Assembly (NCBI GenBank): GCA_964597545.1
Contig: CAZQXN010000002.1
Span: forward strand, 88,234-152,233
Source of the DNA: an uncultured Planctomycetia bacterium
Lineage (GTDB): Bacteria > Omnitrophota > Gorgyraeia > 1-14-0-20-64-10
DNA: 64,000 bases
Direction: 5' to 3'
Shown here: positions 1 to 61,039 of the stretch, piece after piece
Numbering within the stretch: the first letter of the stretch is position 1
How the letters are laid out: each line of letters opens with the position of its first letter
The notes under the pieces: model-generated
What the model was told of the DNA's origin: nothing
The model's database searches: none
The model's input: only the letters and a program-made list of their open reading frames with translations
Translations under genes and position numbers: made by a program

Positions 1-7
1 CAACACG

Positions 8-3000
8 GTGGATCCTCAAACCCTGGTGGCCGAGTGGGACGTCATCGATCCTGAGACGGGCACTTGGCTGCGGGCCGATGGGCAGGTGGAGATCTCCCTG
101 ATTCCGGATGAAAAGAAGCGCAAGGTCGACGGTTCGCTGGCCGCCTACCGACACTTCGGTTTCAAGGATCCGGTTTCCGCCTATCCGGGTTTGGTGGAGG
201 CGATACGGAATCAACTCAAGCCCGGCGGTGTGGTGTACTACGGTTTCTCCAGCGCGGTGGTCAGCCGCTCTCCGCAGGTGATGATTCGGGCAGTGGCCGA
301 AGCCCTTGCCCGGGAGGATGTGGCGAAGGTGTGGCTCGGCAATGTCACCTGGAACAACGAGACTGCCTTCATGGAGTGGACCGATGAGGCAGACTTCCAT
401 GAGATGGCCACCGGCCTGCCCTTGGCCGAAACCATGGACTACATGGTGGTCAACAGTGAATGGCCGCACGAAGCCGCGCTTGGCGAAGCGCGAGGATTGG
501 CAGAAGCGCTTGAAGGCAGCTATCCGGAGGCCTTGGAGGCGGCGGATCAAGCCATTCAAGAGACCGGAGGTGACAGGGCCGATTTAGCTCAGGAAGCGAT
601 CAAGCGACTCTCAGGGGTTGCGGGCATCAAGAATCCTGTCCGCCAACTCCTGCTGGGCATTTTGCTGTCTGACTGGGGAGACAATTCAACCGGCTGGAAG
701 TTTCGCGGGGGGCGCCCTCTCGGCAAATCGCAGAGCACCGCTCTTCAAAAACGCGGGCTCACCCTGTTGGAGCTTCCCTTTCTCCGGTTGGGGAGATCAC
801 CCATGCGGTTGGGCTACGGCGCGGACCGGAGAGACGTTAATCTGCCCTTGCCGATAGTGGATCCTGCGCAGTTTCGGTTGATTGATAAGATGGTCCGCGG
901 CCACTTTGCCCAGAAGAGCGGGCTGGAGGAGGGCACCCTGGGCAATCCGGATCTGGAGCGTGCGATGATCGAAAGCCCGACTTCGAACCAATGGCACCAG
1001 GCCTTTTTTGAGACGATGCCTACAGGGGCTGATTTCTTCTGGTGGTTTCCAGCGGCGCGCACCTTCATCAAGGACCATCCGCAGGTGATCACGGAAGATT
1101 TCCTGACCCTGCTGTGTGAGTCGGTTTCCAATCCGGGATTCAGCCGCTTCCACCGGCACGCGGCCTTCTGGCTCCTTTCCTCCCTGGCCTCCGAGCCGAT
1201 GGAGCTGCCCCCTGTCGGCGTCATACGGCCGGAGTATGAGTTGATCGTAAGCAACGCCTCACTCCGGCTCGCATGGAAGGATGACGCGCAGGATCAACCC
1301 CTCATTCGGGAGCTTCTTTCGGATGAGGGCATCACGGTGCACTCTCTTGCGATGCTGCCCCGGCAGGGCGCCAATGCGGGAACCTACCGGGCAGAGGTTG
1401 CCATGAGTCCCGGGGCACCCTCCGCAACAGTGGCGGTTAAGATCATCTATCCGATTCGATCCTATCGAGACCGCTTTCCAACCTTCTTCGGGACATTCGC
1501 CGATCTGGATCGCGAGGATCTGGAAGCAGGGCAGGCCAAGCGGCTTGTCTATCAGGAGCTTGCGGGAGATTGGATGGCCCGGCTTTTAAAGACGACCACA
1601 AAGTACCTTGCGTATCAGCACCCCGTGGCCCCTGGGGTGTCGTATCAGGAGGATCCTCCCTACTCTGGGCCAGGACTGGCGGCGACGTTCCCAGAGATCC
1701 ATACCGTTGCTTTAACGCCGCATGTACTCGTTGAGGAGTTTGTGGAGGGGGAGGATCTTGGCTACCTTGTGGAGCGAGGGGAGCACGAACTGCTGCCAGA
1801 TGCTACTCGGGCTGCGCGCTACGCCTATGAGCAGATCTGGGCCCATACGCAGGGTTTTGCCGCAAGCGATCCCAAGCCGACCAACGTGGTGGTTTGGCAG
1901 GAGGCCGGACAATGGCGCGCCAAAGTGGTGGACCTGATCGAGTTTGACCGCAAAACCGATGCAGAACTGCGCAAGCAGCTGGATCACTCTCTCCCGCTTG
2001 CCCTAGCCCGGGTTCCCGGCGGACAGGAGGAGATCCATCAGACGTTCCGGAGGCTGGAGAGCGAGCCCTGGCTGGCGGCTTGGAATGAGGCCTTCCAAGG
2101 TTTTGCCGAGATGGCGTCAGAGCGCCCGGAGCTGTTTGATTCCTTTGGGCTGCTGATTGACCAGAGCGCTGACGGTTTGGGCCAGCATCGGCTTGAGGTC
2201 GTCATCCCTCATCCTGAGCGCCTCAATGACGATGAGCGCGGAATGACGGTGCGCTATCTGGGAGCGATCCTGAACAACGCGGCCTGGCTTTCCATGAAGC
2301 AGCCGAAGGATACCGCCAAATCTCACGCGGTGATTTCTCTTTCCGGCGCATGGGCTCAGCGCGTCAATGACTGGCTGAAGAATGAAACCCGGCTGATTGA
2401 ATCCTTAAGCCCCACCATGCTCTATGGCCCGGTCTCTGTGGAGGTTGTTGGCGCCCTGCCGCCGGCCACCACCACGGCCGCCACCACGCCGGTCGCCTAT
2501 GCCCAGGTCAATGGGAAGAGTTTCAATCCAAGGGCAGGGGTCCCCATTGTGGGGGTGGATCTGGGCGGCACAAACCTCAAGATCAGCATACTTCAGGGCG
2601 GCCGAATGGTTCATGGAGAGGTTATTGCCGATTGGCGTGCCCAGGAGGCCGAGGTTGCCAGAGTAGGGCTGGCTCGATTCCTGGTTGACCAGATTCGCAA
2701 GAGACTCAGCGACGCCGACATTCAAGAGCTGCCCCAGGTGATCGGCATGTCCTGGCCAGGGCCGGTCCGCACCCCCAAGATCCTGGGCTCGGTTTCCATA
2801 GAGACCTTTCTGGCGGGGCTGATTGACAAGGTAAACCAAGGAGAGCTCTCCGGAGATGAGAGCAGGCTTCGCGCAGAGCTTGAGATGATGGAAGCAGGGC
2901 GCTTTATGGCGGCTTTGGGAAGCGCCTTGGACGAGACGGAGATGGAAGAAGTGATCCTCCTGCCTTACCGGGACGCCTTTGCCGAGGCCTTTGGGGTGGC

Positions 3001-4141
3001 GGTGGCCAGCTACCATCCGGCGTTTACGGGCAAAGCCCGCAGCGCCGTGCCCGCTCCAAGGATTGTCATCGTCACCTCCACCCTTGGAACCGGTGTCGCG
3101 ATCTATCTCGTTGAGCCTGACGGTCGGATTGCCCGGGATACACTCCTGTATGAGTTGGGGCGGCTTGTCATCAGCATGGACCCCTCGCAGACCAAGCCCA
3201 ACCGCTCCACGGGGTTGTACGGAACGCTGCGCCAGTTTTTCAGCAACGACGCGGTGCGCCTGGACGATGCCGAACACACCTCGCAAGCCGGTGAGGCGCT
3301 TGCAATGACGGCCCTCGTGCTCGAAGATGCGTTGGGGGCCGGCCGCATGACCCTTTCCGGGGGCAATGCCCGGCTGGAGATCGTCACGGCGGCCGAGGAG
3401 GCGCTGAAATGGATAAACACCTCCACCGAACAACCGACCAGCATGCACATTGAACTCAGCCCTGTTGCTGGGTTGACGGGAGCCGAGCCTATCTACACCC
3501 CCTCGATTGGTGCTGGCTGGGCGGCGTTGGCCGACAGCTTTGCTCCGGTTGAAGAGGAAGCTACTCCGGCAGAGCAGAAGGCCTCTGCGGGTTTGGAGGA
3601 GCTCATCACCATCGCCGAGGACACCATCAACGAGCCCGGCTTTGCCGACGCCTTGGCCTCCGGCCGCGGCACCGTACGCCTTCCCACAGCAGAGGCCAAC
3701 CGCCTCTTCGGCGCCCCCATTGCCCTCATCACCCAAGTCTCGGAGACCACAACCTCCTTCGGCCCTGAGGGCCTGGTCTTCATCGACGACGACCTGATAG
3801 TCAACACCGATGCCTTTGACCCCTTCCCCACGATCTCAACCGGCCCCACCGGAACCGGCACCCTCGCTGTCTTTCCTGAGATCCGCGAAGAGGATTTGGT
3901 TGTTGCCCAGACTGACGACCTCACCCAACTGCAGATCACCACCGCCCTAAACAACACCTTTGCTCCGGGTCAAGCCCCCCGAGTCATCATGGCCGGCTTA
4001 GAAGACGTTCAGACCCTCACCGCCAAGGCCATCGTCACCCTGTGGACCGACCCGAACCTGCCGGATGTGGTGATGATCGGCATTGTTGTGCAGATCAAGA
4101 ATCAGGCTGGAGAGACCTTCCAGCTCATCGTTGCGGCGTAA
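8..4141 (+). CDS. Large multidomain protein (1377 aa within the window; the ORF may continue upstream of position 1). It carries an internal ROK/ASKHA sugar-kinase-like domain at ~nt 2537-3190. Its C-terminal ~180 aa domain is shared with the next ORF.
   Basis: Long uninterrupted ORF. The phosphate-1 motif 'VGVDLGGTNLKISIL', the later 'LGTGVAIYLVEPDG' and 'ELGRLVI' match the ROK glucokinase pattern. An 'AGLEEL' linker precedes a C-terminal domain that is ~85% identical to the C-terminus of ORF 4229..7537. Confidence 0.6.
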   Translation: MDPQTLVAEWDVIDPETGTWLRADGQVEISLIPDEKKRKVDGSLAAYRHFGFKDPVSAYPGLVEAIRNQLKPGGVVYYGFSSAVVSRSPQVMIRAVAEALAREDVAKVWLGNVTWNNETAFMEWTDEADFHEMATGLPLAETMDYMVVNSEWPHEAALGEARGLAEALEGSYPEALEAADQAIQETGGDRADLAQEAIKRLSGVAGIKNPVRQLLLGILLSDWGDNSTGWKFRGGRPLGKSQSTALQKRGLTLLELPFLRLGRSPMRLGYGADRRDVNLPLPIVDPAQFRLIDKMVRGHFAQKSGLEEGTLGNPDLERAMIESPTSNQWHQAFFETMPTGADFFWWFPAARTFIKDHPQVITEDFLTLLCESVSNPGFSRFHRHAAFWLLSSLASEPMELPPVGVIRPEYELIVSNASLRLAWKDDAQDQPLIRELLSDEGITVHSLAMLPRQGANAGTYRAEVAMSPGAPSATVAVKIIYPIRSYRDRFPTFFGTFADLDREDLEAGQAKRLVYQELAGDWMARLLKTTTKYLAYQHPVAPGVSYQEDPPYSGPGLAATFPEIHTVALTPHVLVEEFVEGEDLGYLVERGEHELLPDATRAARYAYEQIWAHTQGFAASDPKPTNVVVWQEAGQWRAKVVDLIEFDRKTDAELRKQLDHSLPLALARVPGGQEEIHQTFRRLESEPWLAAWNEAFQGFAEMASERPELFDSFGLLIDQSADGLGQHRLEVVIPHPERLNDDERGMTVRYLGAILNNAAWLSMKQPKDTAKSHAVISLSGAWAQRVNDWLKNETRLIESLSPTMLYGPVSVEVVGALPPATTTAATTPVAYAQVNGKSFNPRAGVPIVGVDLGGTNLKISILQGGRMVHGEVIADWRAQEAEVARVGLARFLVDQIRKRLSDADIQELPQVIGMSWPGPVRTPKILGSVSIETFLAGLIDKVNQGELSGDESRLRAELEMMEAGRFMAALGSALDETEMEEVILLPYRDAFAEAFGVAVASYHPAFTGKARSAVPAPRIVIVTSTLGTGVAIYLVEPDGRIARDTLLYELGRLVISMDPSQTKPNRSTGLYGTLRQFFSNDAVRLDDAEHTSQAGEALAMTALVLEDALGAGRMTLSGGNARLEIVTAAEEALKWINTSTEQPTSMHIELSPVAGLTGAEPIYTPSIGAGWAALADSFAPVEEEATPAEQKASAGLEELITIAEDTINEPGFADALASGRGTVRLPTAEANRLFGAPIALITQVSETTTSFGPEGLVFIDDDLIVNTDAFDPFPTISTGPTGTGTLAVFPEIREEDLVVAQTDDLTQLQITTALNNTFAPGQAPRVIMAGLEDVQTLTAKAIVTLWTDPNLPDVVMIGIVVQIKNQAGETFQLIVAA
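2537..3190 (+). other. ROK-family (ASKHA fold) sugar-kinase-like domain embedded in the large protein
   Basis: DxGGT-type 'GVDLGGTN', 'MSWPGPV' (cf. ROK 'GIGvPGpv'), 'LGTGVAIY..PDGRI', 'ELGRLVI' (cf. ROK 'EiGH'). Confidence 0.5.
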
Positions 4142-4228
4142 CGTCATCCCCGACTTGATCGGGGATCAGATCCTCGCTTTGACGAGGGTGACAAAAGGAG
4201 TAGCGGGAATGACAGTAAAGGGATTAAA

Positions 4229-7200
4229 TTGAAACGGCTGACAGCGGCATTCCTTGGTTTCTCTTTTGCCCTCTTTCCACAGGTTTTGCCAAAGGTTTGG
4301 GCGGCCGGGACCGACTTGCAAAAGGGGTCAGACCCCTTTACCCCCCGAAGGGGTCAGACCCCTACACTCAGACCTGCTCAGTCTGCAGATCAGAAGGAGA
4401 CCGAAGCCCGCCGGAAAAACCCTGTTTTGGCAGGACTGGAAGAGAGATTAACCGCTCCCTCCGGATTTGACAGACGGGAGTTTCTAAAACGGGGAATAGC
4501 GGGAATGGGGGCTGCAGGCTTGGGGTTGGCCCCTCTCCGGCATCTTCTGGCCCAGGCCGAGCGCGATCCGGAAAAAGCCGCACTGGTAGCGCGCGTTCGC
4601 CGGATGCTGAACCCCGACGATTACAAGGATTCGGTCCGGTTCATCGACAGGCAGCGGATTACAGGGCAGCCCCCTGTGATGCCGATCAACATTCCGGCCG
4701 AGGCCTTAGAGAGGTACCGCCGAGTGCGGGGCAGAGATTTTCGCGGGTTTAATTTCAACGGGCTTCACCGGAGTTACCGATCAGATCCCGATAACCCACA
4801 CTGGGCAGGGCCGGAAGGCTCTGCTCAGATGGCGAAATTCGGGAGGGTTTGGATTTATGATTCAGCCTTGGGTATCAAGGCCGAAGTGGGAGCCGCGCAG
4901 GCAGCCCTGGCCGATGGGCGAAGAGATGACGCCCTTGAACGGTTTAATCTCCTCTGGCGATCATCCCGTGCTTTGGTGGAATTGGGCAAGGACGAGGAGG
5001 CCCTTGGATTCTCCGGCGGCTGGCACTTTTCCTACAACACCGATGGCGACAGCTGGATTGACCCTCGTGCGCCCATGGGCGGGGTCTTGTGGGGCATCAA
5101 CGCTCTGTATGACGCCATCGGTTTTGTATTGACTGCCGACGATCCGGCCATCCGTTCGCATCGACAGGAGGCGCTGGAGCTGTTGGTCTGGGTCGACATG
5201 CTGGTTAAGCGGTTGGTCTTTTTCATGCAGGTGATGGACCCGGACGATCCCAGAGACGGCCTTATCCGGAACATGGTGTACAACAGCTTGATAGATGCAG
5301 GTCTTTCCATGGACGATGCCGGTTACCGCGTTTATGAGGGGCAGCCCAACCGAGCCGGTCAGTTTGTGATCTTTGAACACAATGCCGATTTGGCCGATGT
5401 TCTCCGCAACGCCGCTAAGGTCAATGCCGCAGCCGCCCTGATCGACGCCCGATTCCAGTCTCCGAAATTCCAGAAAGGGTTTATGGACGAGCTGCCGGTG
5501 CGGCACGAGCGGTTGCTCAATGCCCTGTGGGATAAGGCTTGGGTCGGGGACCACTTTGTCACCGCTATGGAGGCGGATGGAACCATCAACACTTCGGTAG
5601 CGCTTGACAACCAGACATGGGTTGCCGGGGTGTTTCTGCCGTACAGCGAGGATCGGGTCTGGCGAGCGCTCGACTATGCCTGGGAGGAATTCCGGACCAA
5701 GGGGCGCGATGGACGGATTGCCACCCGGTTGGGGGACTTGGTGCTGGAGGATGTTCCGGCTGCCGGCAGAAGGTGGGTTCAACAGCTTGCCGACGAGGAA
5801 ATTGCCGCTGTCCACTTCTTTGATTGGAATTTTAAGGACCCGTATGTGGTGGTGCCCGCTGCCCGCCGCCACAAGTTGATCGAGATGGTTCAACCCGAGG
5901 CGAACGAAGGCATTCGGGATCTGCTCATCCGGGTGGCGCTCGTGACGCGAGATCCTCAACGCCGAGAGGCGGCCCTCCGGCGGGCGGAGCTCATCACCAA
6001 GACCCTCTCCATGATCCGGAAGATCTACGGGGGGCTGCCCTATGCCACCAACTATATTCCGGATCTGATGAGCACGCTGCAGGCGATGGCGCCGGAGGCG
6101 AGTTTTGCGACCGTCTCGACCCGCTTGATGGGGGCGCCGGTCGCCCTGATCGGCACAGCTGCGCCGGATCACTTCACCTTCCAGGGGCGCAGGCCCGGCG
6201 AAGCTCCTGCGACGGTTACGCCCATGCGCGAGCCCGCGGTTGAGCCTGCTGTGCCCGCGGTTGAGCCTGCTGTGCCCGCGGTTGAGCCTGCTGTGCCCGC
6301 GGTCCCTGGCAAGCTGTCGGCAAAGGTGCTCGAGCTCAAGCCTGCCTACATGACACTCCAGCTTACAGTCCCCGAGCGCCTCAAGGGCAAGCAGTTCTTC
6401 GCCGTCGCCTTCATCAAGACCGACCAATGGTATCCCCAGCCTTCTATGAGAAAGAGCGAATTGATGAAGCGGGTGCGCTCGAGCGGCGAGGTCACCCTCA
6501 CGACCGTGGTTCCCCGTTCTCCCTTTGTCGGGGGCGGGATCCGCGGCCGGGCGGTTGCCCTCTTTGATAGCGAGGAGGCGTTCGACGCTTTCCTCAAAGA
6601 TTTTTCGAGGGCGGGCGATCGAGCGACCGCGCAGCACGCAGTCCAAATCTTTTTGATCAGCGAAGAGAAACAGGTAACGCCCACCGATCGACTGAGTTTC
6701 CATCACCCATCGATCAACAGCCCTTTGCTCAGCCGCAGCACCTTCCGTGGCCCTGCAGTTGAAGTGGGGCCTGGTTCAGCAGCGTTGGCCGCTGCCCAGC
6801 AGCCTCTCTCGGATACTTTGTTGGCCGAGGTTCTCTCGCCGGCGCCGGCCGGTTCTATGGGGAATCTGCCTCTGGCGATGGGGACCTCGGCCCGACTCTC
6901 TGAAGCGCTCCTCTCGGGCTTGGAAGAAGCCGTTGGTTTCAGCCACACCATTCAGAAGAACCATCTCAGCTTGTCGCAATTGACCGGAAGATTGGAGGAG
7001 CTCATCACCATCGCCGAGGACACCATCAACCAGTCCGGCTTTGCCGACGCCTTGGCCTCCGGCCACGGCACCGTGGTCCTCCCGCCGGCTGAAGCCGGCC
7101 GCCTCTTCGGCGCCCCCATTGCCCTCATCACCCAGGCCGGAGCACCCACCTCAGCCCCTGAGGCGCTGATCTTTGCCGACACCGACCTGATAGGAGTCAA

Positions 7201-7537
7201 CACCACTGCCTTTAGCCCCTTTGCTACTATTCCGGTGGGCTCCACAGGAGACGACATCCTCTCTGCCCTCCCTGAAGTCCGCAAAGGGGATTTGGTTGTT
7301 GCCCAGACTGACGACCTCACCCAACCGCAGATCACCGCCGCCCTAAACAACACCTTTGCTCCGGGCCAAGCCCCCCGAGTGATCATGGCCGGCTTAGAAG
7401 ACGTTCAGACCCTCACCGTCAAGGCCATCGTCACCCTCTGGACCGACCCGAACCTGCCGGATGTCATGGTGATCGGCGTGGTCCTCGAGCTCAAATCCAG
7501 AGCCGGCAACACCTACCTGCTCATCGTTGCGGCGTAA
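4229..7537 (+). CDS. Large secreted protein (1102 aa from the track's TTG start). It has a Sec-like N-terminus, or alternatively a Tat-type signal if translation starts at TTG 4427. It contains an (AVEPAVP)n tandem repeat and a C-terminal ~180 aa domain paralogous to the C-terminus of the first ORF.
   Basis: N-terminus 'MKRLTAAFLGFSFALFPQVLPKVWAAG'. Internal 'SGFDRREFLKRGIAGMGAAGLGLAPLRHLLAQA' looks like a Tat signal. C-terminus 'RLEELITIAEDTINQSGFADALASG...LLIVAA'. Confidence 0.6.
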   Translation: MKRLTAAFLGFSFALFPQVLPKVWAAGTDLQKGSDPFTPRRGQTPTLRPAQSADQKETEARRKNPVLAGLEERLTAPSGFDRREFLKRGIAGMGAAGLGLAPLRHLLAQAERDPEKAALVARVRRMLNPDDYKDSVRFIDRQRITGQPPVMPINIPAEALERYRRVRGRDFRGFNFNGLHRSYRSDPDNPHWAGPEGSAQMAKFGRVWIYDSALGIKAEVGAAQAALADGRRDDALERFNLLWRSSRALVELGKDEEALGFSGGWHFSYNTDGDSWIDPRAPMGGVLWGINALYDAIGFVLTADDPAIRSHRQEALELLVWVDMLVKRLVFFMQVMDPDDPRDGLIRNMVYNSLIDAGLSMDDAGYRVYEGQPNRAGQFVIFEHNADLADVLRNAAKVNAAAALIDARFQSPKFQKGFMDELPVRHERLLNALWDKAWVGDHFVTAMEADGTINTSVALDNQTWVAGVFLPYSEDRVWRALDYAWEEFRTKGRDGRIATRLGDLVLEDVPAAGRRWVQQLADEEIAAVHFFDWNFKDPYVVVPAARRHKLIEMVQPEANEGIRDLLIRVALVTRDPQRREAALRRAELITKTLSMIRKIYGGLPYATNYIPDLMSTLQAMAPEASFATVSTRLMGAPVALIGTAAPDHFTFQGRRPGEAPATVTPMREPAVEPAVPAVEPAVPAVEPAVPAVPGKLSAKVLELKPAYMTLQLTVPERLKGKQFFAVAFIKTDQWYPQPSMRKSELMKRVRSSGEVTLTTVVPRSPFVGGGIRGRAVALFDSEEAFDAFLKDFSRAGDRATAQHAVQIFLISEEKQVTPTDRLSFHHPSINSPLLSRSTFRGPAVEVGPGSAALAAAQQPLSDTLLAEVLSPAPAGSMGNLPLAMGTSARLSEALLSGLEEAVGFSHTIQKNHLSLSQLTGRLEELITIAEDTINQSGFADALASGHGTVVLPPAEAGRLFGAPIALITQAGAPTSAPEALIFADTDLIGVNTTAFSPFATIPVGSTGDDILSALPEVRKGDLVVAQTDDLTQPQITAALNNTFAPGQAPRVIMAGLEDVQTLTVKAIVTLWTDPNLPDVMVIGVVLELKSRAGNTYLLIVAA
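6236..6306 (+). repeat. 21-bp tandem repeat (gcggttgagcctgctgtgccc), ~3.3 copies, in frame, encoding (AVEPAVP)n
   Basis: Direct reading of the sequence: 'PAVEPAVPAVEPAVPAVEPAVPAVPG'. Confidence 0.9.
6992..7537 (+). repeat. ~545-bp direct repeat of 3596..4141 (roughly 85-90% nt identity; includes an exact 37-mer ggaggagctcatcaccatcgccgaggacaccatcaac). It encodes the shared C-terminal domain of the two large ORFs.
   Basis: The nt and aa alignments of the two 3' ends were read directly. Confidence 0.85.
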
Positions 7538-7559
7538 GAGACGAAGTTGCGATAAAATA

Positions 7560-10019
7560 ATGGCTATGCTCCCTGCAAAAGGGTTTAAGCGGTGCGGTTT
7601 ACTGCTGGCCCTCCTCCTGCTTGTTCTTTTGGGATTGCGGATTTCAGGCCCGCAGTCGGATACAGACATGGAGAAACATCCCTCCTTTGTTGAGCCCTCA
7701 GGGGCACCAGCCATTGCTCCCTCCCTGCCTGAGCCCTGCAGGGAGAAGGGCAAGGAGTTGCCCGATCCGATCCTGGTGGATGATTTCGAGACCGGCCAGA
7801 CCCACGGCCTCTTTGCCCAGCGCAAGAACCGCCTGGATGCCTTCCAGGGAACCTGGGCCAGGCGCCCATCCTATACAGTGATCACCAAGGTGCTGGACAG
7901 CCGGCCAGGTTCGGTGGGTAATGCCCTGCGCCTGGAGTACAACAAGGTGGGCGGCTGGTGCGGCTGGTACACCCTCTTAAACGGCATTGACATCTCCTGC
8001 CACAATGCCTTGACCTTCTGGGTTAAGGGAGAGGAAGGGGGGGAGCGCTTTGATATCGGCCTGGCCGATGACACGATGCAGGATTTGCAGATTGACGCCG
8101 TCTACGTCGGATCCATCAAATCTTTTCTGCCGGAGGGCATCACCACCCAATGGCAGCAGGTCAAGATCCCGCTGCAGTCCTTAAGATCGGAGTTGAATCT
8201 GACCCGGATGGGCTCTTTGGTTCTTTGGTTTAGGTACGAAGGCAAGGGGGCGATTGAGGTGGACGACCTTGTCTTTGCCTTTGATGAGGAGATAGAACGG
8301 ATCTTGGAGGAGAATATGCCCCGGGCCCAGCTGGATATCCGCTCTCCCCGGGCCATGTGGGTTTGGAAGTATGATCCGATCAACAATCTGGATGTGCGCG
8401 AGGAGCTCTTAGCCTTCTCTGAGCGCACAGCGATCCAGCGCTTCTATCTCTATCTGGGCGAGGAGCCCATTCCCCAGACGCCTGAAAATTACCAGCAAGG
8501 GTTGGCTGAGTTCCTCCGGCAGTGCCACGCACAGGGGATTGAGGTCCAGGCCCTTCAGGGCAACCCCGTTTGGGCCCTCAAGCGCCACCACTCCAAGGTG
8601 TTGAAGTGGATTGGGGGATTCTTGACTTACAACCGGACGCGCCCCCCCGAGGAATGGATTGACGGGGTGCACATGGACATTGAGCCGTATCTGACCTCTG
8701 AGTGGGAGACCGGCGATCAGAAGAAGCTTAAAGAAGAGTTTTTGGAGCTGATGGCCTCCTGCCGGGAGTTGATCGATGAGGAGAATGGACGCACCGGCGC
8801 TCGCGCCTCGACAGGCTCAGCGCGGACGGAAGATGCCGCGCTGCGGCCGTGGGCTGTGGGGCCGACGGCAGCAATCCCCTTTGTGATGGGGTTGGCGATC
8901 CCGCTTTTCTACGACCGGGAGCCGGAGATGGAGCGTAAACTTCTCGCCTTTCTCGATTACGCTGCCCTCATGGATTACTACGATACCGCCCGGGATATCA
9001 TTGATGCCGGTTGGTCCCATGTTGAGATGGCAAGGGAATTGGGCGTTGCGATGGTGATCGGCATTGAGACCCAGGATTTGATCCAGATGTCGCAGGGCAA
9101 GCGCCGCAACACCTTCATTGAAGAGGGATGGAACGATATGGAGGCGGAGCTGGCCGAAGTCACCAACGCCTTTGCGGGTAACCCCGCCTTTGACGGGTTG
9201 GCGATCCACTGTTATTACGCCTATAAGATTCTTCAGCGGGGGCGAAATGTCCCCACCCGGGAGCGGACCGGTAAGCTCCCCGGATTCACCGCCGCGGAGT
9301 TGCCTTTAGCCGCTCAGATTGACGGGGATCTCTCGGAATGGAACCAAGCCCAGTGGACGCGCATCTTCTTGCGCAAGCAGGCGGTCTATGGCGTCGGGGC
9401 GTGGGAGGGACCGAACGACTATTCCTTCAAGGTCGCTGCCGGCTGGGAGCCGGAGGCCCTCCTGCTGGCCTTTGATGTGACCGACAACACCCACATTCAA
9501 GAAAAACAGAAGGCCGACATGTGGGAGGGGGACCACCTTGAGCTTTGGCTGGATACCGATCTGGAGGGGGACTACGCCGAGGCCGTCAACTCCTCCGACG
9601 ATTTTCAGCTTGGGCTCTCCCCCGGGAATTTCAGCACCTTGCCGCCGGAGGCGCATGTGTGGGTTCCGTCGGTGGATCCCGATGCCTTGGCGGGCATCCA
9701 GGTGGCTGCCCGTAACACCGAAGCCGGATATGCCTTAGAGGTGCGCCTCCCCACAGATTTTCTATTTCAGAATGTTCGAAAGCGCGTAGGGGTGGGACCG
9801 GTGCACTCGGAGATGCCTAAACGGATTACCCCGGAGATGTTCGCCCTGCAGGAGGGGGTGCTCCAGTCGCATCAGCTTACGGCAGGGTTTCGGATGGGGA
9901 TCATGGTGGACGGCTCAGATTCGGATCTGGCCCGGCACCCTCAGAAATGCGTCCTCTCCACCTCAGAGGAACGGCAGTGGGGGGATCCGACCACCTTCAA
10001 TATCTTGGAGTTGCGATGA
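7560..10019 (+). CDS. Membrane-anchored or secreted multidomain glycan-active protein. It contains a 'WCGWYTLL' CBM-like beta-sandwich (~nt 7900-8290), a TIM-barrel glycoside-hydrolase-like domain (~8340-9200) and a CBM9/DOMON-like C-terminal domain (~9300-9800).
   Basis: ATG at 7560 gives 'MAMLPAKGFKRCGLLLALLLLVLLGL' (signal/TM). Motifs 'GGWCGWYTLL...FWVKGEEGGERFDIG...TQWQQVKIPL'. 'GIEVQALQGNPVWA...GVHMDIEPY' is paralogous to ORF 12607..13602. The track start at 7527 overlaps the preceding gene and is less likely. Confidence 0.55.
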   Translation: MAMLPAKGFKRCGLLLALLLLVLLGLRISGPQSDTDMEKHPSFVEPSGAPAIAPSLPEPCREKGKELPDPILVDDFETGQTHGLFAQRKNRLDAFQGTWARRPSYTVITKVLDSRPGSVGNALRLEYNKVGGWCGWYTLLNGIDISCHNALTFWVKGEEGGERFDIGLADDTMQDLQIDAVYVGSIKSFLPEGITTQWQQVKIPLQSLRSELNLTRMGSLVLWFRYEGKGAIEVDDLVFAFDEEIERILEENMPRAQLDIRSPRAMWVWKYDPINNLDVREELLAFSERTAIQRFYLYLGEEPIPQTPENYQQGLAEFLRQCHAQGIEVQALQGNPVWALKRHHSKVLKWIGGFLTYNRTRPPEEWIDGVHMDIEPYLTSEWETGDQKKLKEEFLELMASCRELIDEENGRTGARASTGSARTEDAALRPWAVGPTAAIPFVMGLAIPLFYDREPEMERKLLAFLDYAALMDYYDTARDIIDAGWSHVEMARELGVAMVIGIETQDLIQMSQGKRRNTFIEEGWNDMEAELAEVTNAFAGNPAFDGLAIHCYYAYKILQRGRNVPTRERTGKLPGFTAAELPLAAQIDGDLSEWNQAQWTRIFLRKQAVYGVGAWEGPNDYSFKVAAGWEPEALLLAFDVTDNTHIQEKQKADMWEGDHLELWLDTDLEGDYAEAVNSSDDFQLGLSPGNFSTLPPEAHVWVPSVDPDALAGIQVAARNTEAGYALEVRLPTDFLFQNVRKRVGVGPVHSEMPKRITPEMFALQEGVLQSHQLTAGFRMGIMVDGSDSDLARHPQKCVLSTSEERQWGDPTTFNILELR

Positions 10020-11251
10020 ATCTTTCTATCGCACGATGCATCTTAAGGGTGGGACTAACAGCTTCCCTTGTGGTCACGGGCCCTCAGCGGTCAGCAGCCC
10101 GTGCTGAGGAAGGGGTGCCTGCTGCCGAATCCCCGGCTTTTGCGGGCACTCCATTGGGAGAGATACCCCCCTTTCCGGAGGGGACCCAACTGATTCCCAG
10201 GGTTGCCCGAGTGGCCGAACGGGGCCGGATCGGGGGATATGCGATGCGGCCGTCGAAATATGGTGTATACTATGACGAGCGTAACCACCGACCCGGTTCC
10301 AAGGAAGGGATCTACGTCCGCTACCGCAAGAAACCTTACCCCTCCTTCTGCGGCGCCTATTTGGTCATTGCGGGGGATCTCTCTGCCCATGCCACCATGA
10401 CCTTTTGGGTCAAGGGGGCCAAAGGCGGGGAGGCCTTTGAGATCGGCATGAATGATGTCGTCTCCAACCAGCGGGAGGATGCGGTGATGGTCGGCTCCAT
10501 CTATCGGTACCTTCCGCAAGGGGTGACCACTCAGTGGCAGCAGGTTAAGATTCCGTTGGAGGATTTTTTCGGTGCGGACCTACGCCGGGTCTTCAGCGTG
10601 GTCTTCAACTTCAACGAGACCGGAGAAGGGATCTTCTGGATCGATGAAGTCGCCTTTCATGAGGAGCAGTTGGTCTTCCGGGAGGATGAGATCCTAAGCC
10701 AAGGCCATCTCCTCGTGGACAATTTTGACCACGCCGATGTGAATCTCTTGGGACGCAAGGCCAATGCCTACAAGCGGCTGCCCTCGGTATGCCGCTTTGA
10801 TCGGGTGGAGTCGCCGCGGGTAGGGGACCATGGCCGGAGCTTGCGCTTAAGCTTCGAGAAGAAGTCGACCGGTTGGTGCGGCTATTACACGCTGCTCAAC
10901 CAGATTGACGGCAGCTACTATGACCTGACCCTCTACAAGGAGGTTGCTTTTCAGGTGCGCGGGGGCAAGGGCGGCGAGACCTTCGAGGTCGGAATGGCGG
11001 ATCGATCCTGGCAGACGATCGGCGATTCCGTCAAGGCCGACGCCATCGAGAAATACCTCCCTGCGGGGGTGACCACCCAATGGCAGGAGGCGGTCATACC
11101 GCTGGATGATTTCGGCAAATTGGATTGGACGCAGATGGGTTCCGTGGTCTTTAACTTCCATCGTCCCAGCGCCGGAGAGCTGTACATTGATGATCTGCGT
11201 TTGATCCGCAAAAGCGAGGAGGATCTTCTGGAAGCATGGGACGAAGAATGA
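10016..11251 (+). CDS. Secreted protein with two tandem CBM-like 'WCGYYTLL' beta-sandwich domains
   Basis: ATGA overlap with the upstream stop. Signal 'MNLSIARCILRVGLTASLVVTG'. Two copies of 'FWVKG/FQVRGGKGGE.FE.GM.D...TTQWQ(Q/E)..IPL(E/D)DF'. Confidence 0.6.
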   Translation: MNLSIARCILRVGLTASLVVTGPQRSAARAEEGVPAAESPAFAGTPLGEIPPFPEGTQLIPRVARVAERGRIGGYAMRPSKYGVYYDERNHRPGSKEGIYVRYRKKPYPSFCGAYLVIAGDLSAHATMTFWVKGAKGGEAFEIGMNDVVSNQREDAVMVGSIYRYLPQGVTTQWQQVKIPLEDFFGADLRRVFSVVFNFNETGEGIFWIDEVAFHEEQLVFREDEILSQGHLLVDNFDHADVNLLGRKANAYKRLPSVCRFDRVESPRVGDHGRSLRLSFEKKSTGWCGYYTLLNQIDGSYYDLTLYKEVAFQVRGGKGGETFEVGMADRSWQTIGDSVKADAIEKYLPAGVTTQWQEAVIPLDDFGKLDWTQMGSVVFNFHRPSAGELYIDDLRLIRKSEEDLLEAWDEE

Positions 11252-11862
11252 TGAGACAGGCGGCCGGTATCGGCCTGTGTACCATCGCAGTGGCCCTCTC
11301 GTGCGCTCTTGCCTTGGCGGCAGAGCCGCTTCTCATTGATGACTATGAGGCCGGTGCTGCCAATCGTTTGGGGGGCCGCTCCAACACCTACGTCTCCGCC
11401 CCTTCCCGGGCGTTGGCGATGAAGACCGACAAAGAGGCGCACGCCGGAAAGAGCGCCTTGATGATCAAATACGACAAGAAGAACCAGGGGGGCCCTTATG
11501 GCCAGGGGGGGTGGTGCGGCTACTATACCCTCTTGAAGGTGGGGTCGCGCTACTTTGACGCCACCGAATACAGGGCTTTGACCTTCTGGATCAAGGGGAG
11601 CAGGGGGGGTGAGAATTTCGTGCTGGGGGCTGCCGATCGCCACTGGGAGCAGGTGGGCGATTCGGTGAAGTCCGAGCCGATCGGCAAATATCTGGCCGAA
11701 GGCAAAATCACCGCCGACTGGCAAAAGGCAGTGATTCCCCTGGATACCTTCATGATCGACATGCAGGAGCTTTCCTCCGTTTCCTTTTGTTTTGAGGGTT
11801 CGGTCTTCCCGGCCGGGGCAGGCAAGGGGACCCTCTTTGTGGATGATCTCACACTGGAATAA
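11248..11862 (+). CDS. Secreted single-domain CBM-like ('GGWCGYYTLL') protein
   Basis: ATGA overlap. Signal 'MMRQAAGIGLCTIAVALSCALALAAEP'. Domain motifs 'FWIKGSRGGENFVLG..DRHWEQVGDSVKSEPIGKYL'. Confidence 0.6.
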   Translation: MMRQAAGIGLCTIAVALSCALALAAEPLLIDDYEAGAANRLGGRSNTYVSAPSRALAMKTDKEAHAGKSALMIKYDKKNQGGPYGQGGWCGYYTLLKVGSRYFDATEYRALTFWIKGSRGGENFVLGAADRHWEQVGDSVKSEPIGKYLAEGKITADWQKAVIPLDTFMIDMQELSSVSFCFEGSVFPAGAGKGTLFVDDLTLE

Positions 11863-11891
11863 TAAGCGGAATAATGTTAGGAGGTGTACGA

Positions 11892-12599
11892 ATGAGAAGG
11901 TTGAACGATGCATTAAAACGATGGAGCGCCCTCTCCGTCAAGCTGGCTGCGGCCGGTTTGGCGGTCGGGCTGCTTGCCCTCTCTGCCCGGGCGGCGGCTT
12001 CTCCGCTGCTGGTGGATGATTTTGAGGGGGAAGAAGTGATCAAGAATATGCTTGGCAATCGAGCCAACGTTTTCCTCAAGGCGCCCTCCAAGGCGATGGT
12101 CAGCCGTCGCTCGGAGCAGGTGAACGGCCAGGAAAGCCAGGTCTTGATGCTTCGTTATGACAAGCGCAACTCCGGCGGTCCGTATGACGGCGGGGGGTGG
12201 TGCGGCTATTACACGCTGCTCAAGTCCCCGGGTGCCTTGGTGGCGCCCACCGACGAGAACCCCAATCCCGAACCCCTGGGAGAACAGTACCTTGACGGCA
12301 GCGAGTTGACTCAGGTTTCCTTCTGGGTGCGCGGTGAGAAGGGGGATGAGAATTTTGTCTTAGGGATGTCTGACCGGCACTGGGACAAGATCGGAGATTC
12401 CGTCAAGTCCGAGGAGATCGGCAAGTATCTGCCGCAGGGACGCATCACCACCGAGTGGCAGAAGGCCGTGGTGCCGCTGGACGAGTTCTTCATTGACTAC
12501 GCCCAGTTGGCGGCCGTCTCCGTTGTCTTCGAGGGAGATCTCTTCCCGGAGACCGGCCACGCAGGGACCCTCTACATCGACAACATCACACTTGAATAG
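11892..12599 (+). CDS. Secreted single-domain CBM-like ('GGWCGYYTLL') protein, paralog of the previous ORF
   Basis: AGGAGG Shine-Dalgarno sequence 9 nt upstream of ATG 11892. Signal 'MRRLNDALKRWSALSVKLAAAGLAVGLLALSARAAASP'. 'FWVRGEKGDENFVLGMSDRHWDKIGDSVKSEEIGKYL'. Confidence 0.6.
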   Translation: MRRLNDALKRWSALSVKLAAAGLAVGLLALSARAAASPLLVDDFEGEEVIKNMLGNRANVFLKAPSKAMVSRRSEQVNGQESQVLMLRYDKRNSGGPYDGGGWCGYYTLLKSPGALVAPTDENPNPEPLGEQYLDGSELTQVSFWVRGEKGDENFVLGMSDRHWDKIGDSVKSEEIGKYLPQGRITTEWQKAVVPLDEFFIDYAQLAAVSVVFEGDLFPETGHAGTLYIDNITLE

Positions 12600-18708: not shown

Positions 18709-19281
18709 ATGGATATGGGAAGGCAACATCGAATAGTAAGCGAGACTGGCTGCTACCATGTTGTCGCGCGCGGCAATAGCCAAAAAGCGGTCTTCCGGCA
18801 GAAGCAAGATTACTGGGCGTATCGCCATCTCTTAGGGGAATATGGGAGGCGCCATGCCGCACAGATCTACCACTATTGTTTAATGAGTAATCATATCCAC
18901 CTGGCGCTGCGCATTGAGAGCCTGAAGCAGCTTAGTCAGATGATGCATGACGTGCAACGTGCATATTCCCGGCATCGCCAGATGCAGGATCAAGTAACCG
19001 GACAATTGTGGCAGGGGCGGTTCCAAAGCTACCCCATCAATGATGAAAACTATTTTTTGGCATGCGGGCGCTATATTGAACGTAACCCCATAGAAGGTGG
19101 ACTAACAGCCGACCCAGGAAATTATCCTTGGTCAAGCTATCGGTTTTATGCGTATGGCGTAAAGGACTGGATTGTAGTTGCTTCGCCGCTCTATGCAAGT
19201 ATGGGCAGGGTGCCCCAGGAGCGTCAGAGTGCCTATCGCACCTTCATTGACAATGGTACCGGGTACAAATGCCCTTTTTGA
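18709..19281 (+). CDS. IS200-like / REP-associated tyrosine (Y1, HuH) transposase
   Basis: 'YHVVARGNSQKAVF', HuH motif 'CLMSNHIHLAL', 'YIERNPIEGGL...YPWSSY' (catalytic Tyr region). The annotated 3' end reads into the right hairpin, so the true stop may lie slightly upstream or the hairpin is translated. Confidence 0.7.
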   Translation: MDMGRQHRIVSETGCYHVVARGNSQKAVFRQKQDYWAYRHLLGEYGRRHAAQIYHYCLMSNHIHLALRIESLKQLSQMMHDVQRAYSRHRQMQDQVTGQLWQGRFQSYPINDENYFLACGRYIERNPIEGGLTADPGNYPWSSYRFYAYGVKDWIVVASPLYASMGRVPQERQSAYRTFIDNGTGYKCPF

Positions 19282-19305: not shown

Positions 19306-21378
19306 TTATTTCCAGTGGGAGGACCAGAGCAGCCAGATCCGGGAGTCTTGGGTCCGGACGTGGTCGTTGTCCCGGTCCTTGTCGTAACGGTATTCGCCGT
19401 TGAGCTCCAGGCGCCACTCGTCAAAGACGTCGTAGCCTAAGCTCAAGCGGGTTGCCAGCAGGGGGCGCTGGGCCAGGTCCGAGTCAAAGTCAGCCAGGTG
19501 CAGATAGACCGAAGGGGTGGCCGACCACTTCCGGCGCTTGTCGCGGCTCAGCTTCCGGTAGGGCCAGATGAAGTTGGCCCCGAAGGAGTGGCCCGTGGCA
19601 TGGCGCAGGTTGCTCTCGGTGGCCGGGACCGGGTCGATGAGCTTGCCGTCCTGAAAGGTGTAGTTAAGCCCGGCAGAGGCGTTGGACCAGAGCCTCAAGG
19701 AGCCCGACGCATTGACCTCGTGCTGCAGGCCGTGGTGCCGGGTCTCATTGAACAGCTCATCGAAGAATTCATAGCGGTACCGGGCGGAGAGGAGCGCCCG
19801 CTTGAATAAGGGCAGGGCCAGGCGGGAGCCGACGGTCCAACGGATCTCATCCTCGAAGGCGGTGCCGTTTTCATGCCGTTCCTCTTTGAGAGGGTGCTCC
19901 CACCAGTACGTTCCAAAGGCCGACCACTGCAGGTGCCCCAGATGATGGGCCAACTCTGCCCGCAAGTTGGTGGTGCGCACCTTGGAGGGGCGCGTGGCCG
20001 GACCCGGAGAGGAGGTGGTGTCGGTCATGCTTGCCCTCATGCGCGGTTTTGGCCAGCCGGCGGGCACCTTGATCCCGAGGTCTGCGTGATACCATGCCTG
20101 CCGGGTCTGCTCTACGTTGTCCTCATCGTCCAAGTCGTTGCGGTACCAACTGGCAGCCAAGTCCAGATCAAAGGGTCCCAGCGGCGCGAAATTGAACTTG
20201 TGGTGCGTGAACTGCCGGCCGGCGCTTAAGCCCTTGACGTTGTTGACGGCACCCGAGGGCAGGTCTGCCAGGAGCAGGTAGTCGGGTCCGGTGCGCTCAA
20301 CGACGGCGTCCCACTTGATCCACGGCTGGATGAAGGTGGACTGCACCAGGAAGGCAAGGTCCTTGAGTTTCTCGTTGTTGCCGAAGCGGTCTTCCTTCAA
20401 GTTGTCATCGGTCTCGCTGTAGCTCTCGTATGCCTTGACGAACCAGGTGTCGGGGATGAAGGTGATCTCCTGGTTTAAGTTGTAGACGGTGTTGTCGCGG
20501 CGCTTATTGGCGATGTTGACCGCATGGATTCTCCCGGTGTCCCGCGTCTTGACGACACTGGCCCCCAGCCGCACGCGGTCTTCAATGATCTTCCAGCGGC
20601 TGCGCACCCCCATGACGCTCCTGGGGTAGATGTATTCGTCGCGGTCCTCCAGCCAGTAAGGATACCCTCCGTAGAGGGCCTGGAAGTCATGCCGCTCGCC
20701 GGTCAAGAGCAGGTTGATCCCCCTCAGGCGCGAGCTCCTCAAGAAATAATAGCTGGGGAAGGTGGCGGTATCTCCCAACCCCAGATGGGAAGCGCCCTCG
20801 GCGCCGTATTCACCGGGTTTCTCGAAGAAATCGGCCAGGAGGGTCCGGTAGCGCAGGTCGTTGTGGCCGTTCCTAAAGCCCTCCAGGTCCAGGCGGATGT
20901 GCGCGTCGATGCCGTCGCGGCCCTCCATGAAGGCTTCCAGGCGCTGGTTGATCTGCCAGCCATGGCTGTCAAAATCTTGGTCGGACTGTCTGTCGGCGTC
21001 GCGGCGCTGTCGAAGGACCCTCAGGCGCTCATGGATGTGGTGCTTGCGGCGCAGAGCGCGCTCAATCACAAACTCCCTCTCTTGAGGGTTCTGGACTCCG
21101 GCCATGGCACGCTCCACGTACTCCTGGAAGAGGGACTGGCTTTGAGTTTCTTTGGAGAGCTTGCCCAGCTCAGCCAGCGCCTGCTCGAACCGCCCCCTGC
21201 GCATCATGTGATCCACCCGCGCCAAGAGAAGGGTCTCTTGCGAGGTCAGGGGCTTTGCGTAAGCAGGCGGAAGGTTGAGGGTGAAAGAGGAAAGGAGCAG
21301 CAGGCAGCAGGCAGCAGGCAGCAGGCAGGCAATCGCTCCTGCTTTCTGCTTGCCGCTTTCTGCCTCCCGGATTTTCAC
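19306..21378 (-). CDS. Outer-membrane protein with an N-terminal helical (TPR-like) periplasmic region and a C-terminal beta-barrel (PgaA/BcsC/Slam-like architecture)
   Basis: Likely GTG start at 21378 giving the signal 'VKIREAESGKQKAGAIACLLPAACCLLLLSSFTLNLPPAYA'. Helical region 'ETLLLARVDHMMRRGRFEQALAELGKL'. The C-terminal half is rich in alternating aromatic residues and ends '...RIWLLWSSHWK'. The track start at 21651 overlaps the upstream gene and is rejected. Confidence 0.45.
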   Translation of the reverse strand: MKIREAESGKQKAGAIACLLPAACCLLLLSSFTLNLPPAYAKPLTSQETLLLARVDHMMRRGRFEQALAELGKLSKETQSQSLFQEYVERAMAGVQNPQEREFVIERALRRKHHIHERLRVLRQRRDADRQSDQDFDSHGWQINQRLEAFMEGRDGIDAHIRLDLEGFRNGHNDLRYRTLLADFFEKPGEYGAEGASHLGLGDTATFPSYYFLRSSRLRGINLLLTGERHDFQALYGGYPYWLEDRDEYIYPRSVMGVRSRWKIIEDRVRLGASVVKTRDTGRIHAVNIANKRRDNTVYNLNQEITFIPDTWFVKAYESYSETDDNLKEDRFGNNEKLKDLAFLVQSTFIQPWIKWDAVVERTGPDYLLLADLPSGAVNNVKGLSAGRQFTHHKFNFAPLGPFDLDLAASWYRNDLDDEDNVEQTRQAWYHADLGIKVPAGWPKPRMRASMTDTTSSPGPATRPSKVRTTNLRAELAHHLGHLQWSAFGTYWWEHPLKEERHENGTAFEDEIRWTVGSRLALPLFKRALLSARYRYEFFDELFNETRHHGLQHEVNASGSLRLWSNASAGLNYTFQDGKLIDPVPATESNLRHATGHSFGANFIWPYRKLSRDKRRKWSATPSVYLHLADFDSDLAQRPLLATRLSLGYDVFDEWRLELNGEYRYDKDRDNDHVRTQDSRIWLLWSSHWK
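21296..21330 (-). repeat. Heptanucleotide SSR (gcagcag)x4.5 on the plus strand (ctgctgc on the coding strand) inside the signal-peptide-coding region of the outer-membrane protein gene
   Basis: 'gcagcaggcagcaggcagcaggcagcaggcaggc'. It encodes 'LLPAACCLLLL'. The unit is 7 nt, so a copy-number change would frameshift. Confidence 0.7.
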
Positions 21379-61009: not shown

Positions 61010-61017
61010 AGCATAAT

Positions 61018-61039
61018 GGGGACGGTCCATTTTGGGACA
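61018..61039 (+). repeat. 22-nt exact repeat 'ggggacggtccattttgggaca', identical to the left arm of the terminator hairpin at 30534-30555. Here it has no right arm. It lies between the two giant genes and overlaps the start of the third giant gene.
   Basis: Direct comparison of the two loci. Confidence 0.85.

Follow-up and report, generated by a model that had tools for sequence, protein, structure and literature searches.

A GLEE-delimited C-terminal module of large Omnitrophota proteins, swapped between genes and kept alike in a tandem pair by gene conversion

What does it mean that two neighbouring genes, with products that are otherwise different, end in a closely similar run of about 180 codons? 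The question is raised by the left end of a 64,000-nucleotide stretch of contig CAZQXN010000002.1, here called the window (G+C content 59.8%), where two large open reading frames (ORFs) on the plus strand, ORF1 and ORF2, share a C-terminal domain (CTD) and the direct DNA repeat that encodes it. The Omnitrophota are widespread, uncultured and possibly predatory nanobacteria with very large genes, and a GH94 phosphorylase encoded at 32118–34565 places the host among them, with 60–76% identity to genes in many Candidatus Omnitrophota metagenome-assembled genomes and far lower identity to those of other lineages. Our answer is that the tail is an undescribed C-terminal module of the large proteins of this group, one that a Gly-Leu-Glu-Glu (GLEE) motif delimits, that is exchanged among genes, and whose two tandem copies here are held similar by gene conversion. 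Targeting or docking would be its most plausible function.

A mosaic repeat at the ends of two tandem genes

The ORF list gives the two genes as 8–4141 and 4229–7537. ORF1 is cut by the window edge, and an exhaustive protein search recovered its full-length product of 3827 aa (P0003), of which the window encodes the last ~1379 codons (2–4141); full-length ORF1 and a copy of ORF2 encoding an identical protein (P0002, 1102 aa) are both present on one NCBI contig of 156 kb. P0003 is a leader-bearing multi-enzyme protein with cytidylate kinase, ARMT1-like phosphatase and CofD/YvcK-like domains and weaker ABC1-kinase-like and ROK-like regions, and it ends in CTD copy 1. ORF2 has a Sec-like signal, an LRPxQ...AGLEE leader, a twin-arginine (Tat)-like RREFLKRG sequence with a hydrophobic segment, a body of unknown fold, a PAVEPAV repeat and CTD copy 2.

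The C-terminal ~181 aa of the two proteins are homologous (BLASTP E 8e-74; 135/183 residues identical, 74%), and both domains open with ...(G/R)LEELITIAEDTIN and close with LIVAA. A preliminary description of the window, made from its letters alone, had recognised the homologous tails and their shared start and end correctly, although it put their identity at ~85% and took the proteins to be 1377 and 1102 aa long, the first of which is in fact 3827 aa. At the DNA level the direct repeat runs from 3593 to 4141 (copy 1, encoding CTD-1, 181 aa and the stop codon) and from 6992 to 7537 (copy 2, encoding CTD-2, 180 aa and the stop codon), both on the plus strand and ~3.4 kb apart. Identity is 83% over the codon alignment and 85–90% in gapless blocks. 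The limits of the DNA homology are sharp, in that it starts at the TTG-GAG-GAG codons for L-E-E (3593/6992) and ends at the stop codon. For copy 1 this start is the Leu codon of a G-L-E-E motif (SAGLEE, 3590–3601) that forms the N-terminal boundary of the domain. ORF2 has its own SGLEE boundary (6917–6928), followed up to position 6991 by a junction insert that is not present in the orthologue P0004; the insert comprises ~24 aa in all, AVGFSHTIQKNHLSLSQLTGRLEE, and ends in a second R-LEE at 6992–7000. An assembly duplication artefact is ruled out, as the copies differ by 17% in DNA, and neither tblastn nor a profile hidden Markov model (HMM) search of the six-frame translation found a third copy in the window.

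The two copies form a mosaic. Repeat codons 1–20 and 101–160 are 93–97% identical, with a proportion of synonymous differences (pS) of 0–0.14, whereas codons 21–100 and 161–180 are 65–80% identical with a pS of 0.3–0.54. The main high-identity tract lies at 3892–4068 in copy 1 and pairs with 7288–7464 (~97% identity, pS 0–0.14), and a second one lies at 3593–3655/6992–7054. This near-identity does not reflect a general constraint on the DNA, because the same codons (1–20 and 101–160) compared with the orthologous tails of other samples (L001 and L005) give a pS of 0.25–0.59. The longest exact matches between the copies are 39, 38, 37 and 36 nt. The ratio of nonsynonymous to synonymous divergence (dN/dS) between the copies is 0.55 overall and ~0.9 in codons 81–100, and the unconverted patches of the repeat have diverged fast.

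Comparison with related loci, with orthology set by synteny or by the flanking gene body, shows that the paralogous tails are more alike (74% amino acid identity) than either is to its orthologue; the tail of copy 1 is 68% identical to that of its syntenic orthologue P0001, that of copy 2 is 58% identical to P0004, and P0001 and P0004 are 63% identical to each other. The histories of tail and body are also discordant. The ORF2 body is 87% identical in amino acids to its L005 orthologue, with a dS of 0.21 and a dN of 0.08, but in the tail these rise about fourfold, to a dS of 0.79 and a dN of 0.30, and the switch falls exactly at GLEE. Three signs of concerted evolution are present: paralogues closer than orthologues, a near-zero-pS mosaic with sharp limits, and discordance between tail and body, with the first two as in other tandem paralogues that evolve in concert, such as tuf genes and rRNA operons. 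The mosaic tracts, the closeness of the paralogues and the rise in dS at the GLEE boundary together indicate that the ORF2 tail was replaced at the motif boundary, with later patchy gene conversion between the tandem copies. We read 3892–4068/7288–7464 as a recent gene-conversion tract, and the junction insert of ORF2 is interpreted as the scar of the tail replacement. At the orthologous junction in L001 and L005 both tails are already in place, and a doubled LEE like that of the ORF2 junction is also found in P0016.

These results modify the earlier view of the repeat. It had been placed at 3596–4141 and 6992–7537 and considered similar enough for homologous recombination that could delete or duplicate the start of the intervening gene. 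A direct repeat with ~3.4 kb spacing is confirmed, with its start moved to 3593 and its uniform similarity replaced by a mosaic, and recombination between the copies is supported, in the form of non-reciprocal patchy conversion and module replacement; no evidence of deletion or duplication of the intervening gene was seen in the sequences analysed. The exact matches of 36–39 nt would permit a rare deletion fusing ORF1 to the end of ORF2.

A tail family on unrelated bodies

Neither CTD, searched as single sequences and as a profile, has a match in Pfam, NCBIfam or the PDB. An exhaustive profile search of 1.84 billion protein cluster representatives (E<=1e-3) returned a family of 15 protein clusters, and in all of these the match ends 0–4 residues from the C-terminus. 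Other searches were less productive: a word-indexed protein search is insensitive for this family (1 and 4 matches), scans of genome and metagenome contig collections with an alignment of close relatives (A1) gave no match, the source genome and most of its relatives lying outside these collections, and a metagenome contig scan with an alignment of the clade ending in LIVWTQA found three short contigs only. The 15 aligned tails (alignment A2, also the source of the HMM mentioned above) are 22–75% identical to the window copy, and six positions are invariant: D64, G83, R129, P156, V158 and L177. The tails end in A, M, V or T (for example ...QLIVAA, ...TLILMA and ...LIVWTQA). Two similar endings are misleading, as hhalign shows no relation of the CTD either to the C-terminus of a 3089-aa ORF in the window (...YAIVTAT) or to the tail module of P0017 and P0018 (...EALLISA).

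The CTD is attached to about ten kinds of N-terminal body, most of which are unrelated to each other. P0003 and the distant P0008 are multi-enzyme giants with cytidylate kinase, ARMT1-like phosphatase, CofD/YvcK-like and NTP-transferase-like regions; P0002, P0004 and the distant P0010 have ORF2-like bodies; P0016 has HEAT-like repeats, P0020 an NDK domain, and P0011 (1654 aa), P0013 and P0014 have other bodies. Sec-like N-termini can be recognised by eye in P0002, P0003, P0008, P0010, P0011 and P0014, but not in the product of L072 (142–1242), a chimera in which ~60 residues from the start of a GT2 glycosyltransferase are joined to GMEE and the CTD. A stand-alone CTD ORF, P0009, occurs in two independent samples (L002, 75–650; L003, 116–691) and has a stop in frame 17 codons before it, yet the sequence above its Met is still homologous to the pre-CTD linker. 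Both P0009 and L072 look like recombination by-products, or orphan cassettes. Conversely, P0017 and P0018, homologues of the ORF2 body from other Omnitrophota (45–49% identical), have the same leader and a different C-terminal module, the unrelated tail noted above, which we call CTD-B. Because unrelated bodies carry the CTD, and homologues of the ORF2 body carry a different tail, the CTD is an exchangeable cassette and not a private tandem duplication. The preliminary description had proposed a conserved C-terminal domain on otherwise different proteins, which is borne out, and the domain is not confined to these two genes, the finding that would have spoken against that proposal.

We note that other C-terminal modules of ~180–215 aa, unrelated to the CTD by HMM or hhalign, also follow (A)GLE(E) in L074 (2–5920), L077 (10001–14083, P0017) and P0018, which suggests that GLEE delimits tails of several families. 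A few genes downstream of both P0017 and P0018 lies a gene for an M16 double peptidase.

The orphan and truncated cassettes recall the exchange of orphan modules in Rhs and contact-dependent inhibition (CDI) systems. Unlike in Rhs/CDI, the constant part that is exchanged here is the C-terminal module and it is the N-terminal bodies that vary, and the boundary is a four-residue peptide motif, not a long conserved DNA handle.

AlphaFold modelled the CTD with confidence from the 15 sequences of A2, with a predicted local distance difference test score (pLDDT) of 89.3 and a predicted template modelling score (pTM) of 0.85, although with three sequences only the pLDDT was 36. The model of 181 aa is an alpha/beta domain with seven helices and eight strands, consisting of an N-terminal helix/strand sub-domain (1–47), a variable loop, and a sub-domain of ~120 residues with alternating beta and alpha elements that ends in a long beta-hairpin (...ETFQLIVAA in copy 1); a helix starts at LEELITIAEDTI. 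Foldseek found no significant match among PDB structures and viral models (best E 0.013), and the sole recurring likeness, a weak one, is to CheY-like receivers and the CpaE N-terminal domain (TM score <=0.45, probability up to 0.89). With no match in the sequence and structure databases and only this weak likeness, the CTD is a new, hitherto undescribed domain family whose architecture is of the generic three-layer alpha/beta kind, and its members have to date come only from Omnitrophota-like environmental sequences.

The GLEE motif and the function of the tail

In every family member with upstream sequence, G-[LM]-E-E is found 0–50 residues before the CTD, and the mutual homology of P0013, P0014 and P0016 begins exactly at this motif; in three members GLEE is found within the CTD itself, in the loop that separates the halves of the domain. 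Four large leader-bearing proteins of the window contain 16 instances of [ASTG]GLEE where 0.19 are expected from residue shuffles (maximum 3 in 2000), an enrichment of ~86-fold, and the 22 ordinary ORFs of the window contain none. The first bases of the motifs are at positions 920, 3590, 4433, 6917, 36739, 41419, 42967, 45412, 46004, 46076, 52238, 54971, 56486, 60767, 61206 and 63702, and the variants GQEE and GMEE are also present. Of 41 non-redundant instances, 40 have A, S, T or G directly before GLEE (position -1), and the flanks are variable. Since the codons vary (GGN; TTG/CTG/CTT/CTC; GAG/GAA), it is the peptide and not the DNA that is conserved, and a DNA-level reading of the motif, as a Shine-Dalgarno-like GGAGG or as a mark of internal starts, fails for this reason and for want of a start codon after it.

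The motif occurs between Pfam domains, at points where homology between proteins begins, and at leader ends, where it closes a conserved N-terminal leader composed of a Sec-like signal, [AG][LM]RPxQ, a few residues and xGLEE. This leader is common to the giant proteins of the window, the CTD family members and nine syntenic Omnitrophota loci, and is not found in Paenibacillus control loci. In ORF2, P0010 and P0017 another signal comes after it, of Tat-like type (RR[EG]FL and a hydrophobic stretch). We found no description of the motif in the literature searched. GLEE is lineage-specific and is a candidate for marking module boundaries, or sites of processing, in the giant proteins of the Omnitrophota; it is a more consequential lead than the tail domain itself.

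A GlmS-like region that is nearly full-length (NCBIfam E 2e-87) lies in the 3089-aa ORF (36505–45774), with its catalytic Cys119 (GDCGCFVRVG..., ~36859–36861) 118 residues from the N-terminus, behind the signal, leader and GLEE segment. N-terminal nucleophile (Ntn) amidotransferases need their catalytic Cys at a free N-terminus; because Cys119 is internal, either this protein is processed or its glutaminase is inactive.

What, then, might the tail do? The gene that follows ORF2 on the plus strand, ORF3 (7527–10019), encodes a secreted protein with carbohydrate-binding modules (CBMs) of the CBM11/CBM30 and CBM9 families, and orthologues of ORF3 follow a CTD-bearing gene in L005 (86% identity) and L074 (58%). 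At these three loci (the window, L005 and L074) CTD tails of the kind described here (CTD-A), on unrelated bodies, precede a CBM9/CBM30 gene, and at two loci from two genomes CTD-B tails on ORF2-like bodies precede a gene for a TonB-dependent receptor. Between L074 and the window the tails are 23–28% identical and the adjacent CBM proteins 58%. A shared interaction module would account for a tail that is strictly terminal and modular, and that is homogenised within a genome yet diverges faster than its neighbours between genomes; from the covariation of tail type with the downstream gene, our best guess is that the tail docks to a shared partner.

The explanation that we favour can then be put as follows. 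The CTD is an alpha/beta module of ~180 aa that stands always at the extreme C-terminus and always after the [ASTG]-G-L-E-E punctuation motif of the lineage, and that behaves as a cassette: unrelated bodies carry it, orthologous bodies can carry another tail, and there are truncated and stand-alone copies. The ORF2 tail was replaced or overwritten from that of ORF1 at the GLEE boundary, and the tandem copies later exchanged patches by gene conversion, in concerted evolution, as other patches diverged quickly. The tail may be a module for protein-protein docking or targeting that different enzymes share and that brings them to one partner; the CBM9/CBM30 protein encoded directly downstream is a putative candidate for this partner, and the tail would not be a membrane-sorting signal of any known type. 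Taken as a whole, from the undescribed module through to docking, we give this explanation an even chance of being right.

A parallel is offered by dockerins, which in cellulosomes pair with cohesins on CBM-bearing scaffoldins. Like dockerins, the CTD is C-terminal on diverse enzymes and its genes adjoin those of CBM-bearing secreted proteins, its type covaries with the neighbouring gene, and it combines fast divergence between lineages with similarity within a genome; docking by the CTD is something that we infer. The CTD is not itself a dockerin, having no dockerin match in Pfam, a different fold, ~2.5 times the size and no duplicated calcium-binding segments, and there are no cohesin repeats in ORF3–ORF6. 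Several points weigh against the favoured explanation. The covariation of tail and neighbour rests on five loci only and has exceptions, as the gene downstream of P0008 is PP2C-like and the loci of the LIVWTQA clade have unrelated neighbours; conversion between copies 3.4 kb apart can be neutral and does not by itself imply selection for similarity; and the invariant D64, G83 and R129, with the flavodoxin-like topology, are also compatible with a domain that binds a ligand or has a regulatory role.

Next best placed, although we consider it unlikely, is that the CTD is a sorting or secretion tail for dedicated export or anchoring machinery, in the manner of the type IX secretion system (T9SS), and may be clipped at or near GLEE after transport. 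The T9SS sorting domains (Por_Secre_tail, TIGR04183/TIGR04131) are likewise a conserved extreme C-terminus on unrelated signal-bearing proteins, with several paralogues per lineage. The CTD is strictly C-terminal on diverse cargo, and all clearly full-length members with a complete N-terminus, bar L072, open with a Sec-like signal and the conserved leader; the short motif just upstream of the CTD could be a processing site, homogenised paralogues within a genome are expected of tails that match one receptor, and secretion-system genes have been reported near Omnitrophota giant genes (10.1101/2023.11.21.568195). Nevertheless, the resemblance to T9SS tails or anchoring domains that the preliminary description had drawn is not supported. 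Neither CTD, nor the whole proteins, nor any of the 15 family members matches a sorting tail in Pfam or NCBIfam, including the three T9SS models named above, and in place of the ~80-aa beta-sandwich of T9SS domains (an all-beta, immunoglobulin-like fold of ~70–100 aa) the CTD is a globular alpha/beta domain of 181 aa for which Foldseek found no beta-sandwich in the PDB. The host belongs to the Omnitrophota and not the Bacteroidota, and no Por/Spr-like genes or other candidate machinery are encoded in the 64-kb window. The PEP-CTERM, LPXTG and GlyGly-CTERM types are rejected as there is no C-terminal transmembrane segment in a hydropathy scan and no basic tail, and the ends lie in the predicted beta-hairpin; an outer-membrane beta-signal or autotransporter C-terminus does not agree with a globular model that has no barrel and no terminal aromatic residue. 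Furthermore, the GT2 N-terminus of at least one member, L072, is of cytoplasmic type and carries no signal peptide, the CTD also occurs as an ORF of its own, and many of the passengers (Cmk, NDK, ROK-like kinase) are ATP- or NTP-using domains, which would be odd for exported cargo. The sorting-tail interpretation is only partly supported.

Somewhat less probable again is that the leader-bearing giants are polyproteins cut at [ASTG]G-LEE, with the CTD a separate ~20-kDa product, a C-terminal pro-domain or an intramolecular chaperone. Much of what is described above for GLEE would follow from this: its strong enrichment in the giants and absence from ordinary ORFs, the varying codons, which imply selection on the peptide, the small residue at -1 and variable flanks, as at protease sites, and its places between Pfam domains and where homology between proteins begins. 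The internal Cys of the GlmS-like region and the stand-alone CTD gene also fit, and a 2023 survey of Omnitrophota giant genes reported no known cleavage points and left open whether the proteins stay whole or are cut (10.1101/2023.11.21.568195). In their size and their enzyme-like modules, parted by a short recurrent motif with small residues before it, the giants are reminiscent of MARTX toxins and viral polyproteins; unlike in those systems, however, no protease domain was identified in the window or in the CTD, where the invariant residues are only D, G, R, P, V and L, the modules are of metabolic and not toxin type, and cleavage is hypothetical. The occurrence of GLEE inside the CTD loop in three members is unexpected of a cleavage site, and the motif could instead be a helix cap or linker punctuation, as the helix start in the model would allow. 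A bolder form of the idea joins it to docking: [ASTG]G-L-E-E might be a processing, or a ligation or recognition, site at which the giants are cut into enzyme-sized modules, with the CTD released as a common docking subunit whose type decides the neighbouring envelope partner, either the CBM protein or the TonB-dependent receptor. We hold this, too, to be improbable, about on a par with the sorting tail.

A third possibility, which we regard as still more doubtful than a cleaved polyprotein, is that the CTD is a ligand-binding, regulatory or oligomerisation domain of flavodoxin or pseudo-receiver type that modulates the nucleotide and sugar enzymes fused to it. The CheY-like receivers and the CpaE N-terminal domain provide the only fold likenesses, and it is the C-terminal ~120 residues of the CTD that weakly resemble CheY-like receiver and flavodoxin-like domains, with an acidic residue at the end of strand 1; the first strand of this C-terminal half ends in an invariant Asp (hhhhDxDL), there are also the invariant G83 and R129, and the fusion partners are enriched in nucleotide and nucleotide-sugar enzymes (Cmk, NDK, CofD/YvcK-like, NTP-transferase-like, GT2). 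Set against this, the Foldseek matches are not significant (best overall E 0.013; best receiver-like matches E>=0.03), there is no Response_reg match in Pfam at E<=1, and hhalign against CheY and Spo0F gives a probability below 1%. The end of strand 3, the equivalent of the phospho-acceptor position, is E, Q or M with no conserved Asp, and the CTD differs from receivers in ending in a beta-hairpin instead of helix 5 and in having an extra N-terminal sub-domain of ~50 aa. It also evolves unusually fast for a ligand-binding domain, and is carried by bodies that are non-enzymatic or of unknown function (the HEAT protein, ORF2).

One might also suppose that a gene end was simply duplicated in tandem not long ago and serves no particular function, given that the copies are adjacent on the same strand and closer to each other than to anything known. 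This is very improbable and is refuted by the distribution of the family, the domain being old and widespread in the lineage, with members only 22–30% identical and ORF1-like and ORF2-like bodies that carry it in the distant P0008 and P0010. The domain also folds confidently, has a dN/dS below 1, and is already present as both tails at the orthologous junction in L001 and L005.

The docking explanation stays the one that we prefer, and the locus adds to what is known of Omnitrophota giants a new and confidently modelled family of C-terminal modules, direct evidence of module swapping and homogenisation at a defined boundary, and a short and strongly enriched motif of five residues by which module boundaries and N-terminal leaders are marked. 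These provide specific peptides to seek in proteomes, a rational basis on which to split the giants before their structures are predicted, and a link between tail type and neighbouring gene that can be tested. If the polyprotein idea were true, the GLEE sites would be the first concrete cleavage points, and the basis of a module map, for Omnitrophota giant proteins.

Other features of the two genes and their neighbourhood

The spacer between ORF1 and ORF2 is 87 nt long (4142–4228) and has an AAAGGAG ~30 nt 5' of the TTG start codon of ORF2, too distant upstream to be a canonical Shine-Dalgarno sequence. Since no terminator or promoter signal in the spacer stands out above background and its RNA fold is ordinary, co-transcription of ORF1 and ORF2 is plausible. 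Searches of the window for tRNA and Rfam matches gave none. In ORF1 (1–4141 and upstream of the window), the placing of a housekeeping-type kinase behind a Sec-like N-terminus in P0003 is odd.

The N-terminus of ORF2 (4229–4558) has two export-type signals in series, the Sec-like signal (4229–4303) with its LRPxQ...GLEE leader and then a complete Tat-like signal (RREFLKRG and hydrophobic stretch, 4472–4558), with the leader G-L-E-E (VLAGLEERL, 4433–4444, plus strand) between them. This order is kept at the amino acid level in P0010, P0017 and L001 (459–728). The Pro-rich linker of ORF2 contains a perfect 21-nt tandem repeat of ~3.4 units (6232–6303) that encodes PAVEPAV, and the L005 orthologue has a diverged version of it (EPRGKPAVEPRREPAVEPRGEPAVEPAV).

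ORF3 is the first of four tandem paralogous genes for secreted proteins (7527–12599), all of which are CBM11/CBM30-like, the first also having CBM9; they share short DNA repeats (families D3, D4 and D6). The window also encodes a set of genes for N-acetylglucosamine (GlcNAc)/chitobiose utilisation, comprising NagB, NagA, a ROK regulator, an ATP-binding cassette (ABC) transporter and the GH94 phosphorylase. There are three further very large leader-bearing ORFs, at 36505–45774, 45821–61009 and from ~61.0 kb; the last (60990–64000) has a signal peptide and a ALRAPQRQEGGLEE leader and runs past the right end of the window. The ABC sugar transporter (24719–28266) shows odd fusions, with a 751-aa ORF that combines a solute-binding protein and a permease, and a following permease (430 aa) that has a CBM30-like insertion. 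Lastly, an IS200/Y1-type transposase gene (18709–19281) lies between the sugar-utilisation genes and a minus-strand block of genes for secreted proteins of unknown function (19306–23976).

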